This document shows, one piece after another, positions 17,789 to 22,972 of a DNA stretch of 57,867 nt. The translations under genes and the position numbers were made by a program. The stretch is from positions 1-57,867 of the forward strand of contig CALZGC010000103.1 in assembly GCA_945786985.1 (NCBI GenBank). Reading direction: 5' to 3'. Within the stretch, counting starts at the first letter, position 1. Every line of letters starts with the position of its first letter. A model generated the notes under the pieces. It saw nothing but the letters and a program-made list of their open reading frames with translations. It was not told where the DNA came from and did no database searches. The DNA comes from an uncultured Nitrospirota bacterium (GTDB lineage: Bacteria > CG2-30-53-67).

Positions 17789-17817
17789 TTGACAGGGCCC
17801 GTCGGCTCTGCTACATT
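17789..17817 (+). promoter_or_regulatory. Sigma70 promoter of the thi operon
   Basis: TTGACA-N17-TACATT directly before the riboswitch. Confidence 0.7.
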
Positions 17818-17826
17818 ACAACCGCC

Positions 17827-17916
17827 AACCGTGGGGGAGTCGTATGCACTGAGAGTCCCGTTGCGACGGGAGACCCCTTGAACCTGATCTGGTTGATACC
17901 AGCGGAGGGAACGGTT
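17827..17916 (+). promoter_or_regulatory. TPP riboswitch (THI element)
   Basis: GGGGGAGT..CTGAGA...ACCCCTTGAACCTGATCTGGTTGATACCAGCGGAGGGA consensus; upstream of thiamine genes. Confidence 0.96.
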
Positions 17917-18027
17917 TGGAGGGGTCTTCCTTTCGGGTGTCCGTGTCACTCGCTCCAAATCCAACCGATCCTCATTCCCTGTCAGGTCCGAAAATGCTGC
18001 TCCACGAAAGGGTGCCGAAGGAGCTGC

Positions 18028-18519
18028 ATGAAAATCAAGGTCAACGAGACCGTGCGCGAGTGTGAGGAGACGGCGACCCTCCACGGCGTGTGCGAATGGT
18101 ACAAGCCCGAAGCCGACGTACTTATCCTCAACGGTTTTCCCGTGTCTGAGGACCACTCCCTGTGCAGCCGGGATGAGGCGGTGCTGCTCAAGAGCCGGAA
18201 CGTGCCTGCGATTTTTCAGGATGCCCGGATTATTGCGGAAGCCTTCGATGGCCCCGAGGCCAAGGCCATGCTCATCAACACCGTCCTGGAGAGGGTGCCC
18301 GAGGCCTTTGTCGTCGGTGTGTCGGGTCTGGCCGGCTATGGGCCTTGCGATGGTCTGGACATCCGGCGTTTCTCGGAACGTTGCTTCGTGGTCGGCGACG
18401 GCGTGAGCGCCGCGGGGCCGGGAGTGGGGCTCATGTCTCCCCGGGTGGGTGTGGCGGCGCATCATCAGGCCAATGTGGTGTTGCGGCTCCTCCTGGATGA
18501 GGAAGGGGTTCGGGGATGA
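18028..18519 (+). pseudogene. thiF: thiF (ThiS-like N-domain + ThiF) with in-frame internal deletion of the ATP-binding region
   Basis: ThiS-like N-domain (MKIKVNE...KPEADVLILNGFP) joins directly to the ThiF C-terminal half (EAFD..EAK, SGLAGYG, VGDG, LMSPRVGVAAHHQANVVLR); GxGGLG and DFD..EPSNLNRQ motifs absent; only 163 aa. Confidence 0.75.
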
Positions 18520-19901
18520 TTCCGACGAAAGAGATCTTTGCCATCGACGAGAAAGAGATCCACGCGCTCATCCGGGGCGGCCGGGCCGGGCGTCACGACG
18601 TGTCCCGGATCCTGGCGCGAGCGCGAGAGGGCAGGCGGCTCGGCCTGGCGGAAATTGCCGCTCTCTTAAGCGTCGAAGCGCCCCGAGATCTTGAAGCGAT
18701 CTTTCAGGGTGCCCGGGAGGTCAAAGAGCAGGTCTTCGGAAAGCGGATCATTCTGTTCGCTCCGCTCTACCTTTCAAACCGTTGCGCGAACAATTGTCTT
18801 TACTGCGGATTCCGCCGGGAAAATCGGGAGGCGGCCCGCAAAACCCTTTCCGTCCCGGACGTTGTCCGGGAGGCCGCCTTTCTCTTCGAACAGGGGTACC
18901 GCCGGCTCCTCCTGGTTGCGGGAGAGACGCAGGGGGATGCATCCCTCGCGTATCTGTGCGACGCGGTGGAGGCCATTTACCGCGAGACCCCCATGCGGAT
19001 GGTGCATGTCAACGCGGCGCCCCTTTCGGTGGAGGGCTTTCGGAGGCTCAAGGGTGGCGGCGCGGGTGTTTATCAGTGTTTTCAAGAGACCTACCATGTG
19101 GCCACCTATCGCCGCATGCACCCCTCGGGCCCCAAGCGGGATTATGCGTGGCGGCTGTCGGTGATGGACCGGGCCATGGAGGGAGGCTTCGGCGATGTGG
19201 GGATGGGGGTCCTCTTCGGACTTTATGACTACCGGTTTGAGGCCCTTTCGGTTGTCGCCCACGCCCTGTATCTGGAGCAGGCCTTCGGGGTCGGGCCCCA
19301 TACGGTTTCGGTTCCGAGACTCCAGCCTGCGCCGGGGGCAGCCCTGAGCCGTGCACCCCATCCCGTGTCGGACGCGGTCTTCAAAAAGATTGTCGCCGTC
19401 TTCCGCTTGGCCCTTCCCTATGCGGGGGTGGTGGTCTCCACACGGGAGGGGGCGACCCTTCGGGATGCAGTGATCCGCATCGGTGCGTCCCAGATCAGTG
19501 CAGGCTCCCGGACGGACATCGGCGGATACGCCGACGGAGCGGAGCGGGCGGGAACACCGCAGTTCTCGCTACGCGATTCGCGCTCCCTCGACGAGATGGT
19601 CCGGTCCGTACTCGAGGCGGAATTACTGCCGAGTCTTTGTACAGCCTGCTATCGCACCGGTCGGACCGGAGAGCATTTCCGTCGGGCCGCCGAATCGGGG
19701 GCGCTCCAGGAGCGTTGTCTGGCCAACGCCCTGCTCTCCCTGATGGAATACCTGCAGCGCCATGGGAGCGCCGGGAGCCGTGCGGCCGGTTTGCAGCGGA
19801 TCGAGGCGGTGCTGGAGGAAGTGCCAGATGAAGCGCTGAGGCGGCGATTGGCGGACCGGCTCGATCGGGTCCGGCGTGGGGAAGCAGATTTGCATCAGTG
19901 A
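18516..19901 (+). CDS. Radical SAM tyrosine lyase of HydG type in the ThiH position
   Basis: FAPLYLSNRCANNCLYCGF, FQETYH, GPHTVSVPRL, ISAGSRT, C-terminal CTAC-x22-C. Confidence 0.85.
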   Translation: MIPTKEIFAIDEKEIHALIRGGRAGRHDVSRILARAREGRRLGLAEIAALLSVEAPRDLEAIFQGAREVKEQVFGKRIILFAPLYLSNRCANNCLYCGFRRENREAARKTLSVPDVVREAAFLFEQGYRRLLLVAGETQGDASLAYLCDAVEAIYRETPMRMVHVNAAPLSVEGFRRLKGGGAGVYQCFQETYHVATYRRMHPSGPKRDYAWRLSVMDRAMEGGFGDVGMGVLFGLYDYRFEALSVVAHALYLEQAFGVGPHTVSVPRLQPAPGAALSRAPHPVSDAVFKKIVAVFRLALPYAGVVVSTREGATLRDAVIRIGASQISAGSRTDIGGYADGAERAGTPQFSLRDSRSLDEMVRSVLEAELLPSLCTACYRTGRTGEHFRRAAESGALQERCLANALLSLMEYLQRHGSAGSRAAGLQRIEAVLEEVPDEALRRRLADRLDRVRRGEADLHQ

Positions 19902-19905
19902 GGGG

Positions 19906-20142
19906 ATGATGAAAATCTATGTGACTCGTGAGGCGGGGGGTAGGGACGGAGGACGGAGGACAGAGGACGGAGGACAGAGGACAGAGGACGGAGGACAGAG
20001 GACAGAGGACGGAGGACAGAGGACAGAGGACAGAGGACGGAGGACGGAGGACGGAGGACGGAGGACAGAGGACAGAGGACAGAGGACAGAGGACAGACGG
20101 CTGAAGGCTGAAGGCCAATCACGCCTATAGGCGGTGCCATAA
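19906..20142 (+). pseudogene. thiS: Probable thiS remnant interrupted by tandem repeat
   Basis: RBS + MMKIYVTREA (two base changes from MKIYVNGEA); distal ATC ACG CCT ATA GGC GGT (ITPIGG) before thiG; expected thiS position. Confidence 0.5.
19944..20112 (+). repeat. Heptamer tandem repeat (GGACRGA)x22 followed by (GGCTGAA)x2
   Basis: 22 units at 19944-20097 (9 GGACGGA, 13 GGACAGA), then GGCTGAA twice at 20099-20112. Confidence 0.97.
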
Positions 20143-20177
20143 ATAAATCGGGATACAGAAACAGAAAGGGAAGAATC

Positions 20178-20954
20178 ATGGAAGACACGTTGGTCATTGC
20201 GGGCAATGCGTTTCGTTCACGCCTCTGGATCGGGACGGGTAAGTACAAGGATTTTGAAGAGACGCGCCTTGCCGTTGAGGCGTCGGGTGCGGACGTGGTG
20301 ACGGTGGCGGTGCGGCGGGTGAACATCACCGATCCGAGCAAGGAGAATCTGCTCGAGACTATCGACCCGAACCGGTACAAGATCCTTCCGAACACCGCCG
20401 GGTGTTTTACGGCGGAGGATGCGATCCGCACGGCCCGGCTCGCGCGGGCCGCGGGGGTCTCGGACATGGTAAAACTGGAAGTCATCGGCGACCCCAAGAC
20501 CCTCTTCCCCGATAACGAAGCGCTTTTGGAGGCCACGCGGGTGCTCGTGAAGGAGGGCTTCATTGTTTTCCCCTACACCAACGACGATCCGATCATGGCG
20601 AAGAAGCTGGAGGACGCCGGCGCCGCCGCGGTCATGCCCCTGGGGGCCCCCATCGGATCGGGGCTCGGGATCTGCAACCCGTACAACATGCGGATCATCC
20701 TGGAGACCGTTTCGGTCCCGGTCATTGTCGACGCCGGGGTCGGCACCGCGTCGGACGCCACCATCGCCATGGAATTGGGAGCCGATGCGGTTCTCATGAA
20801 TACGGGTATCGCCGAGGCCCGGGAGCCCATTGTCATGGCCGAAGCCATGAAGCATGCCGTGGCGGCGGGGCGGCTCGCCTTCAAGGCCGGGCGCATCGCC
20901 AAGAAGCTCTACGCGTCGGCCAGCAGTCCGCTGGAAGGACGGATCCAATCGTGA
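20178..20954 (+). CDS. thiG: Thiazole synthase
   Basis: [48 protein letters not shown]. Confidence 0.97.
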
Positions 20955-21598
20955 CGCACCCGGAGGCCTTCAGCGTTTATCTGATTACTGATCGGAAGCA
21001 GGGGCGGGCCGACGCGCTCGTTCCGGACGTGGCGGCGGCGCTTGCGGCGGGTATCCGGGCCGTGCAGCTCCGGGAGAAGGATCTGAGCGATCGGGAGCTC
21101 TTTGCCCTGGGTGTGGCGCTGCGGGACTGCACCCGGCAGGCCGGGGCCAGATTGCTGATCAACGACCGGGCAGACCTGGCCCTTGCGGTGGAGGCCGACG
21201 GGGTGCATCTGACCCGGACCAGCTATTCCGTGAGCGCCGCGCGCCGGCTCGTGGGAGAGTCCGGCATCATCGGCGTTTCAACCCATTCTGCGGACGAGGT
21301 GAGAGAGGCCGAAGCGGCGGGCGCCGACTTCGTGACGCTGGGGCCGATCTATGAAACGCCCTCGAAACGCCGCTATGGTCGCCCCCTGGGGATGGGCCCG
21401 CTGCGCGAAGCCGTGCAGTCGGTGCGAATACCCGTGCTCGCCATCGGGGGGATCAAACTGCCGGAGGCGGCGGCCGTGCTGCGTGCCGGCGCGGCCGGGG
21501 TGGCGGTGATCTCAGGGATTCTTGCGGCCCCGGACGTCAAAGCGGCAGCGGCGGGATTTGTGTCACGCTGCACAGCAGCACCATCGGAGAACCTGTGA
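20951..21598 (+). CDS. thiE: Thiamine phosphate synthase
   Basis: [44 protein letters not shown]. Confidence 0.95.
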
Positions 21599-21676
21599 CC
21601 CCATGGGGTCACCAGTCGGCCGATCCACTCAGGGCGGCAGAGGGGGACCGCAGGGTTATCAAGGAAAGGAAAAGCG

Positions 21677-22972
21677 ATGAACCAGATTTCTGCAGCACGT
21701 CAGGGGGAGATCACGGAGGCGGTCCGGCAGGTGGCCAAGCGCGAAGGGGTGGCGGCGGAGACACTGGTCGAGAGCGTCCGCCGGGGCCGTGCAGTGGTGC
21801 TCAAGAACCGGGTGCGCCTGCACGGGGAGCCTCTCGGCGTGGGGGAGGGGCTGCGCACCAAGATCAATGCCAACATCGGAACTTCCCGGGACCACGTGGA
21901 CATGGAGGAAGAGCTGGAGAAGGCTCGGGTCGCTGTGGAAGCGGGCGCAGATACCCTCATGGACCTGAGTACCGGCGGAGACCTGCCGGGGATCCGGGCC
22001 CGGATCCTCTCGGAAACCCGGGTGCCCCTCGGTACCGTGCCCATCTACGAGGCGGCCCTGTTCGCGGCGGAGCAGAAGGAGGGGATCGTGCGAATGGACC
22101 CGGAGGATCTCTTTGCCGTGATTGAACGCCAGGCCGAAGAGGGGGTGGATTTTGTGACGGTGCACTGCGGGGTGACCCAGGGGGCGGTGGAGCGGCTCGC
22201 AAAGCAGGGGCGGCTTCTGAACGTGGTCAGCAGGGGCGGCTCTTTCCTGGTGGAGTGGATGCTGCACAACGAAAAAGAGAACCCCCTGTATGCGTCCTAC
22301 GACCGCCTCCTCGACATCGCCCGGCGTTATGACCTCTGCCTCAGTCTGGGCGACGGAATGCGGCCGGGCTGTCTGGCCGATGCGACCGACCGGAGTCAGA
22401 TCCATGAGCTCATTGTGCTCGGTGAGCTGACGCAGCGGGCCCTGGAGGCGGACGTGCAGGTGATGATCGAAGGGCCGGGTCATGTGCCGATCCAGGAGGT
22501 GGAGACGAACGTTCGAATTCAGAAAGCGCTCTGCAGCGGGGCCCCCTTCTATGTCCTGGGGCCTCTGGTCACGGATATCGCACCGGGGTATGATCATATC
22601 ACCGCGGCCATCGGCGGCGCCGTCGCGGCGGCGGCGGGTGCCGATTTCCTCTGTTATGTAACGCCTTCCGAACACTTGCGGCTTCCCACTGTGGAGGATG
22701 TGCGGGACGGGGTGATGGCGTCGAGGATTGCCGCCCATGCCGGGGACATTGCCAAAGGCCTGCCCGGTGCCGTGCACCGGGACAGGGAAATGGCCCGGGC
22801 CCGCCGGTCCCTCAATTGGGAGGAGCAGATCCGGCTCTCCATCGACCCCGAACGGGCACGGCGTCTACGGGAGTCGTTGCCTCCCCAGGATGGGGAGGTC
22901 TGTTCCATGTGCGGCGAGTTCTGCGCCATCAAGGGGGTCAATGCTTATCTCGGGAAGAGCCCTTCTTCCTAA
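21677..22972 (+). CDS. thiC: Phosphomethylpyrimidine synthase
   Basis: TKINANIGTS, MDLSTGG, SRGGS, GDGMRPG, EGPGHVP, GYDHIT, CSMCGEFC. Confidence 0.97.
   Translation: MNQISAARQGEITEAVRQVAKREGVAAETLVESVRRGRAVVLKNRVRLHGEPLGVGEGLRTKINANIGTSRDHVDMEEELEKARVAVEAGADTLMDLSTGGDLPGIRARILSETRVPLGTVPIYEAALFAAEQKEGIVRMDPEDLFAVIERQAEEGVDFVTVHCGVTQGAVERLAKQGRLLNVVSRGGSFLVEWMLHNEKENPLYASYDRLLDIARRYDLCLSLGDGMRPGCLADATDRSQIHELIVLGELTQRALEADVQVMIEGPGHVPIQEVETNVRIQKALCSGAPFYVLGPLVTDIAPGYDHITAAIGGAVAAAAGADFLCYVTPSEHLRLPTVEDVRDGVMASRIAAHAGDIAKGLPGAVHRDREMARARRSLNWEEQIRLSIDPERARRLRESLPPQDGEVCSMCGEFCAIKGVNAYLGKSPSS

Follow-up and report, generated by a model that had tools for sequence, protein, structure and literature searches.

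A thiamine biosynthesis operon in an uncultured Nitrospirota bacterium has lost both of its sulfur-relay genes, thiF and thiS, whereas the genes for its thiazole synthase, thiG, and for its tyrosine lyase are under normal purifying selection. The operon lies within a stretch of 57,867 nucleotides (contig C103; CALZGC010000103.1 of assembly GCA_945786985.1), referred to here as the window, which belongs to G000, a metagenome-assembled genome of 3.11 Mb in 231 contigs that is 93.9% complete. No replacements for the lost genes were found in this assembly or in that of G001, the only same-genus genome compared (a metagenome assembly in 90 contigs, 89% complete). To our knowledge, all thiazole synthases of the ThiG type are taken to depend on ThiS-thiocarboxylate as their sulfur donor. 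The reading that we favor, at somewhat less than an even chance, is that the thiazole branch still works without a dedicated ThiS or ThiF and obtains its sulfur from sulfide or from a MoaD/SAMP-type carrier acting with a MoeB-type activator. The whole case comprises two metagenome-assembled genomes and a single protein record, and should be read as a promising lead rather than as a system that has been demonstrated.

All elements of the operon are co-oriented and follow the order thiamine pyrophosphate (TPP) riboswitch, thiF remnant, HydG-type tyrosine lyase, thiS remnant, thiG, thiE, and thiC:

17823..17927, forward strand: TPP riboswitch aptamer (RF00059, 66.7 bits against a gathering score of 54.3; full length, 1-105/105)
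18028..18519, forward strand: thiF remnant of a ThiS-like/ThiF family 2 fusion, 163 aa (PF14453 and partial TIGR02354)
18516..19901, forward strand: HydG-type radical S-adenosylmethionine (SAM) tyrosine lyase, 461 aa, the predicted ThiH-equivalent of the operon (TIGR03955, 441.5 bits)
19906..19943, forward strand: thiS remnant, recognized by comparison with the intact thiS of G004, G005, G006, and G007
19906..20130, forward strand: short open reading frame (ORF) running into a 7-bp array, with no family match
19944..20097, forward strand: 7-bp tandem array (GGACAGA/GGACGGA), 22 copies (period 7, 93% matches)
20178..20954, forward strand: thiG, thiazole synthase, intact (PF05690, 369 bits, positions 2-247/247)
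20951..21598, forward strand: thiE, thiamine phosphate synthase, intact (TIGR00693, 193 bits; cut-off 145)
21677..22972, forward strand: thiC, phosphomethylpyrimidine synthase, intact (NF009895, 649 bits; cut-off 410)

The original prediction, made from the sequence alone, described the riboswitch, the HydG-like gene, thiG, thiE, and thiC as intact, and this is borne out by model scores above the cut-offs and by the retention of the motifs. The genes for ThiD and ThiL were detected in G000 as well. A TPP riboswitch occurs once per genome in all five genomes searched, G000 included, and the aptamers of G000 and G001 are 94% identical (99/105). ThiE is purposeless without thiazole phosphate, and since no other source of this compound was found, the retention of thiE is counted in favor of a working thiazole branch.

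The thiF remnant consists of a PF14453 ThiS-like ubiquitin domain at residues 1-55 followed by the C-terminal half of a family-2 ThiF, which aligns with positions 100-200 only of the 200-position TIGR02354 profile (103 bits, below the cut-off of 152). Alignment with 9 full-length relatives places an in-frame gap of ~107 columns between the two parts. This gap takes out the glycine-rich nucleotide loop and the adenylation motifs, that is, the nucleotide-binding half, so that the remnant lacks the full Rossmann-type fold by which ThiF family 2 (TIGR02354/NF006395) is recognized. The deletion junction lies near 18187-18195, in unique sequence outside the repeat array. Among the seven family relatives G002-G008, the fusion gene is always present; it is full length (~262-270 aa) in G002-G007 and split by contig ends in G008.

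The closest full-length ThiF among the matches listed from a large protein collection is P0002 (270 aa), whose source genome is not among the 9 family genomes compared. It is 88% identical to the remnant in the C-terminal part and 80% identical in the N-terminal domain. Similar residues flank the position of the gap on either side in P0002, which suggests that the deletion arose between short direct repeats. P0002 itself carries a Gly-to-Arg replacement in the nucleotide loop and has changed at 4 of 76 conserved columns, whereas at least 4 such changes occur in only 3 of 115 other proteins. No other truncated form of ThiF was seen among the 120 matches listed. As to the context of the remnant, it ends where the lyase gene begins, stop and start codon sharing an ATGA at 18516-18519, and the remnant may stay open partly as a leader ORF that relays riboswitch control to the downstream genes.

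The thiS gene is damaged as well. In six family genomes (G003-G008), the radical SAM gene and thiG are separated by a thiS of 66 aa whose product ends in GGG; in G002, thiS adjoins thiG on another contig. Of this gene, G000 retains the first five or six codons (19906-19924) and a few bases of the 3' end, the former stop codon included (~19932-19943). Some 165 bp between the surviving ends have been deleted, and the break again lies in unique sequence outside the array. The ORF at 19906-20130 that begins on this remnant matches neither PF02597 nor TIGR01683. Both relay genes are therefore broken by separate lesions, as the original prediction had proposed, and the thiF deletion it described stands. 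Its view that thiS had been overwritten by repeats does not, because the thiS lesion is an internal deletion in unique sequence. Judging from the copy numbers in the thiS-thiG spacer (2 in G006, 10 in G001, and 22 in G000), the array is evidently an expansion of a motif that was already there. It is rich in GGAGG-like words just upstream of thiG and, with thiS no longer there for coupling, might influence how thiG is translated.

The operon of G001 is the same, and so is the kind of damage. One extra base throws its ThiS-like domain out of frame, the remainder of thiF is deleted, and thiS is missing, with a 10-copy array in the same position. Lesions of the same kind at the same places in a second genome, together with a thiS break in unique sequence, make an artefact of a single assembly unlikely. 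By sequence comparison, the thiF copy of G001 has drifted over much of the period after its split from G000, so that three lineages, those of G000, G001, and P0002, each lost or weakened the relay at a time of its own. In each lineage the damage hits the relay genes. In G001 the lyase gene was kept under constraint well after thiF had died, and thiE, thiC, thiD, and thiL persist, with no other source of thiazole phosphate and no known uptake route found. This pattern across genomes is a stronger argument for a thiazole branch that works without the relay than the intact thiG of G000.

Selection on the retained genes was estimated from the ratio of nonsynonymous to synonymous substitution rates (dN/dS) by the Nei-Gojobori method for G000 versus G001. 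For comparison, the ratio was also computed for G005 versus G007, a pair from the sister genus in which both genomes have thiS and thiF:

Lyase gene: 0.157 for G000 versus G001; 0.103 for G005 versus G007
thiG (202 codons): 0.102 for G000 versus G001; 0.044 for G005 versus G007
thiE: 0.167 for G000 versus G001; 0.185 for G005 versus G007
thiC: 0.086 for G000 versus G001; 0.114 for G005 versus G007
ThiS-like domain of the thiF remnant (53 codons, read across the G001 frameshift): 0.47 for G000 versus G001

The synonymous divergence between G000 and G001 is 0.53-0.78 for the four operon genes, and six flanking genes give dN/dS values of 0.10-0.24, which represent the local background. The relaxed selection that the original prediction had named as a sign against itself was not seen: thiG and the HydG-like gene fall within the range of the flanking genes. 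The value of 0.47 for the thiF remnant indicates that a lost function is detectable at the distance between the two genomes; set against 0.157 for the lyase gene, it further indicates that in G001 the lyase outlived thiF by a long time. Columns conserved to at least 95% among the other sequences point the same way: G000 departs from them once in ThiG (96 columns; the conservative L131F), once in the lyase (106 columns), twice in ThiE (41 columns), and nowhere in ThiC (150 columns).

The genomes were then searched for genes that could stand in for the lost ones. Across 14 genomes of the class, TIGR01683 detected thiS in 7/7 other family genomes versus 0/2 genomes of the genus. Two class-level genomes with thiG and without thiS, G010 and G012, were rejected as further cases, since thiG touches a contig end in both. 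A six-frame search of G000 with a hidden Markov model (HMM) built from 37 operon ThiS proteins gave only a MoaD-like gene (E = 0.17), and no second family-2 ThiF or ThiS-like domain was found in the assembly. Of the genes that the original prediction proposed to look for, thiS and family-2 thiF were not found, and an intact MoeB-type enzyme and a MoaD-family carrier are encoded elsewhere in the genome. Their presence tells in part against that prediction, which had named intact relay genes elsewhere as a refutation. Known salvage and uptake genes were not found either: G000 yielded no ThiM and no true Thi4, the Thi4 model being matched over short N-terminal stretches only and within long frames, and TPK, ThiB, ThiT, and a Pnu-type transporter were found in neither genus genome. 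A ThiM match in G001 (29 bits, partial coverage of the model inside a 540-aa frame) was discarded; we take it to be another kinase.

Public sequencing runs offered little on the lesions themselves. None contained the whole stretch, and four shared 5-6% of the sampled words with it. Contigs of those runs at 82% likeness were short pieces of relatives, none of which spans either lesion. On one of them, from run X4 (~82% identity), 312 letters separate the lyase gene from thiG, versus 223 in the window, which leaves room for a thiS.

If the thiazole branch is working, it would most likely run as follows. The lyase would cleave tyrosine to dehydroglycine, and ThiG would combine dehydroglycine with deoxyxylulose phosphate and a sulfur atom. 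ThiE would join the resulting thiazole phosphate to the pyrimidine from ThiC and ThiD, and ThiL would complete TPP. The sulfur could reach ThiG without ThiS in two ways. It might come directly from sulfide, which an organism with a dissimilatory sulfite reductase may produce, or from a remaining MoaD/SAMP-type carrier activated by a MoeB-type enzyme encoded on contig C47, with a putative link to ThiG. We infer both the continued synthesis of thiazole and the origin of its sulfur. The earlier proposal that sulfur reaches ThiG by another route is accordingly alive, and is the leading reading given the broken relay, the lack of substitutes, and the constraint on the retained genes; the part of it that drew on the auxiliary cluster of the lyase found no support. 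The more general claim, that a ThiG-type synthase works in nature without any ThiS, with sulfur from sulfide or a general carrier, in an anaerobe with dissimilatory sulfite reductase where the dedicated relay is dispensable, seems to us a shade less probable again.

Candidates for both sources are encoded in G000. The only PF02597 (ThiS/MoaD family) match over the cut-off is a 91-aa carrier ending in GG on C47, which scores 60.9 bits against the SAMP1 model NF041918 (cut-off 60) and 53.4 bits against TIGR01687 (cut-off 49.5). It belongs to a cluster (C47:9763-13200; L005 5761-9193) of an Rrf2 regulator, a ThrC-like pyridoxal phosphate enzyme, the carrier, two NIL-domain proteins, and a full-length MoeB-type E1 (PF00899, 283 bits, positions 1-238/238). 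By its gene content, this cluster may make a sulfur amino acid with the help of the carrier. The carrier gene is found in 5/5 genomes searched and differs little within the family. MoaE (PF02391) was found in 0/5 genomes (G000, G001, G004, G005, and G006), so the MoaD-like carrier could not be tied to molybdopterin synthesis. A predicted complex of ThiG with the C47 carrier scored 0.00 (mark 0.32), which is counted neither way. G001 has a second MoaD-like gene beside aldehyde ferredoxin oxidoreductase and radical SAM genes (L042), with no counterpart in G000. On the side of sulfide, dsrA of G000 exceeds the curated cut-off twice (C88:20816-21970 and C53:1188-2333), likewise in G004, G005, and G006; two dsrA-type genes suggest two dissimilatory sulfite reductase loci per genome.

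Several observations weigh against a thiazole branch that works without the relay. No ThiG is known to us to function in the absence of ThiS, and a literature search, outside which lay subscription journals and supplementary files, found nothing on ThiS-less ThiG or on this type of operon. In addition, dsrA is present in 5/5 genomes, including relatives with thiS and thiF, and those relatives also carry the MoaD-like/MoeB cluster, so neither sulfur source alone explains the loss. The remaining points count at the same time in favor of the alternative that survives best, which we regard as unlikely: a recent and ongoing decay of the thiazole branch, in which thiS and thiF were hit first and the bacterium relies, or is coming to rely, on its community for thiazole or thiamine. 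In G000, what is left of thiF looks fresh, with no stop codon, 0/37 conserved columns changed, and its close match to P0002. The open frame and the unchanged columns indicate that selection still acted on ThiF in the recent past of this lineage. The lesions of G000 may thus be young, and an intact thiG there would then say little. In the thiG of G001, the reading frame apparently shifts by 2 nt near codon 48 (L021, G001:C5), and the lyase of this genome has changed at 2 of 106 conserved columns, including R161P. Finally, the thiS remnants differ, with 5' bits surviving in both genus genomes and the 3' end only in G000. The losses may therefore be independent and late; a single loss in the ancestor of the genus and two separate losses are both compatible with the remnants.

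Decay accounts less well for other features of these genomes. In neither genus genome was a ThiM, Thi4, TPK, ThiB, ThiT, or Pnu-type transporter gene found, nor is there a second TPP riboswitch, and thiC, thiD, thiE, and thiL are all retained. In G001, the lyase gene has stayed constrained long after thiF ceased to be. The relay genes were hit in two lineages though they make up the smaller share of the target, with thiF and thiS amounting to ~31% of the coding length of the thiazole branch as computed from ORF lengths. The G001 frameshift, in turn, sits at the left edge of a ~200-bp patch (window 20320-20500) of 52-70% identity between flanks of 78-93%. Recombination with another lineage or, as its looks suggest, chimeric assembly would account for this patch, and the frameshift was for this reason not accepted as proof of decay.

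A working thiS, perhaps with another activating enzyme, could also reside in unassembled or unbinned DNA, the operon copies having decayed as redundant. Such a gene would account for the constraint on thiG and the lyase together with the loss of the relay; the two assemblies are incomplete and fragmented enough to miss one, and the MoeB-type enzyme is in principle able to activate ThiS. We nevertheless consider this quite unlikely. Both assemblies would have to miss the gene (<1% from their completeness, if the misses are independent), the same searches detect thiS in 7/7 other family genomes, and the sensitive six-frame HMM searches of G000 came back empty. It is very unlikely that thiG and the HydG-type lyase are kept for a product other than thiamine thiazole. 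The constraint on both genes in the absence of the usual sulfur donor is all that speaks for such a product, and both still share an operon and its TPP riboswitch with thiE and thiC, have their orthologues in the operons of thiS-bearing relatives, and leave ThiE with no alternative source of thiazole phosphate that we could find. Assembly errors in an operon that is really intact are more improbable still: tandem repeats are hard to assemble and no public run holds the stretch for read checking, but both break points lie in unique sequence outside the array, and lesions affect the same two genes in the independently assembled G001. Least probable of all is that the C-terminal auxiliary iron-sulfur cluster of the lyase supplies the sulfur. 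In its favor, the CX2CX22C motif occurs in this lyase and in all 91 homologues examined. Against it, the enzyme type is accompanied by thiS in nearly all metagenome loci that contain thiG and in six other family genomes, and nothing sets the lyase of this genus apart (1/106 conserved columns changed, ordinary branch length).

The identity of the lyase bears directly on this last possibility. In true HydG, the auxiliary cluster binds cysteine. The lyase scores above the cut-off of the HydG model (441.5 bits with TIGR03955 versus a cut-off of 312) and below that of ThiH (313 bits with TIGR02351 versus 380). It carries CX3CX2C and the C-terminal CX2CX22C, and its best match among solved structures is HydG 4WCX (433 bits; ThiH 7PD1, 211 bits). 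It shares this motif with HydG (TIGR03955; 4WCX, 4RTB). According to PMC9046217, two channel positions of HydG are Phe/Phe, and our own residue mapping on the structure alignment gives the same pair for the lyase. Unlike HydG, the lyase resides in a thiamine operon. The [FeFe] hydrogenase (PF02906) was found in 0/5 family genomes, as was HydF over the cut-off (GTPase-domain matches only). The lyase is the only ThiH/HydG homologue in each of five genomes, stands at the same operon position across the family, and qualifies as a ThiH by its thiG/thiS operon context.

To place the enzyme type more broadly, 80 metagenome loci (L049-L128) with homologues at 43-64% identity were surveyed. Thiamine genes were found in 45/80 loci and thiG in 37/80. 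In 36 of these 37, thiS is also present, and the single exception, L092, falls in a clade unlinked to thiamine genes. A quick tree with 90 rows places the thiamine-linked homologues in a separate cluster (4 label changes versus 28.8 after shuffling), with modest branch support, and the lyase of this genus has an ordinary branch length. Gene neighborhoods and tree together point to the HydG-type enzyme being what thiamine operons of a large group ordinarily use in the place of ThiH. Normally found beside ThiS in the survey, and likewise in six other family genomes, it fails to explain the loss of ThiS, and its cluster domain is no general ThiS replacement. The notion of a pathway built around a HydG-type enzyme and its auxiliary cluster is for this reason not supported. 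The survey of hydG-thiG operons without thiSF, suggested along with it, came out differently for the two genes: thiS is nearly always there, and 24 loci that contain thiG and extend at least 1.5 kb upstream of the lyase gene lack the ThiF fusion in that upstream part. An operon-encoded ThiF is thus seemingly dispensable elsewhere too.

Some smaller features of this enzyme group may be recorded. The spacer of the CX2CX22C motif contains 'FR' or 'FT' in nearly all thiamine-linked genes and 'FM...LAK' in most others. NCBIfam naming would call these thiamine-operon genes HydG.

Compared with known systems, the operon is closest to the canonical anaerobic ThiF-ThiS-ThiG-ThiH pathway of bacteria (PMC9046217), such as the thiCEFSGH operon of E. 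coli. There too, a TPP riboswitch precedes a single operon for ThiG, ThiE, ThiC, and a tyrosine lyase, and ThiD and ThiL are encoded elsewhere. The operon of G000 differs from that pathway in having no ThiS and no working dedicated ThiF, and in its HydG-type lyase, which ends in a cluster domain that the short ThiH lacks. Operons that pair a fusion of a ubiquitin-like domain and ThiF with a separate ThiS, described in PMC1779556 (Iyer, Burroughs, and Aravind 2006), have exactly the layout of G002-G008; the window keeps the fused ubiquitin-like domain, whereas the adenylating half is deleted and the separate ThiS is gone. The functional analogy would be with the sulfide-dependent non-Cys Thi4 of anaerobes, which, according to PMC8454699 and PMC10127261, uses free sulfide and no carrier protein. 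That enzyme belongs to an unrelated family with different chemistry, and G000 has no true Thi4. Finally, carriers of the MoaD/CysO/SAMP type with activators of the MoeB/MoeZ/UbaA type serve several pathways, and C47 holds both parts; the C47 cluster is a sulfur cluster of the amino-acid type that does not lie with thiamine genes, and any link to ThiG is putative.

A lineage that keeps ThiG and the lyase under selection after the loss of ThiS and ThiF is a natural test of the rule that the donor is obligatory. Should thiazole still be made, bacteria would possess a carrier-free or shared-carrier route parallel to that of sulfide-dependent Thi4. If so, a smaller gene set would suffice for engineering thiazole synthesis, and the calling of thiamine auxotrophy from genomes would have to be altered. 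If the operon is only decaying, it still reveals which parts of a cofactor pathway are the first to go when it is taken apart.

Two further features were noted around the operon. A promoter-like site lies just 5' of the riboswitch:

17789..17817, forward strand: promoter-like site (TTGACA, 17 nt, TACATT, extended TG; 10/12 consensus matches)

By consensus matching alone, 3 such sites were detected in the region versus 0.9 expected from shuffles. The purine-rich 7-bp repeat (RGACRGA) is also widespread in this genome, which contains 11 arrays of at least 3 copies. The array at 19944-20097 is the largest, and the others include C47:7644-7706, C203:3461-3523, and 8 more. Very deep matches to the repeat were seen in four sediment metagenomes.

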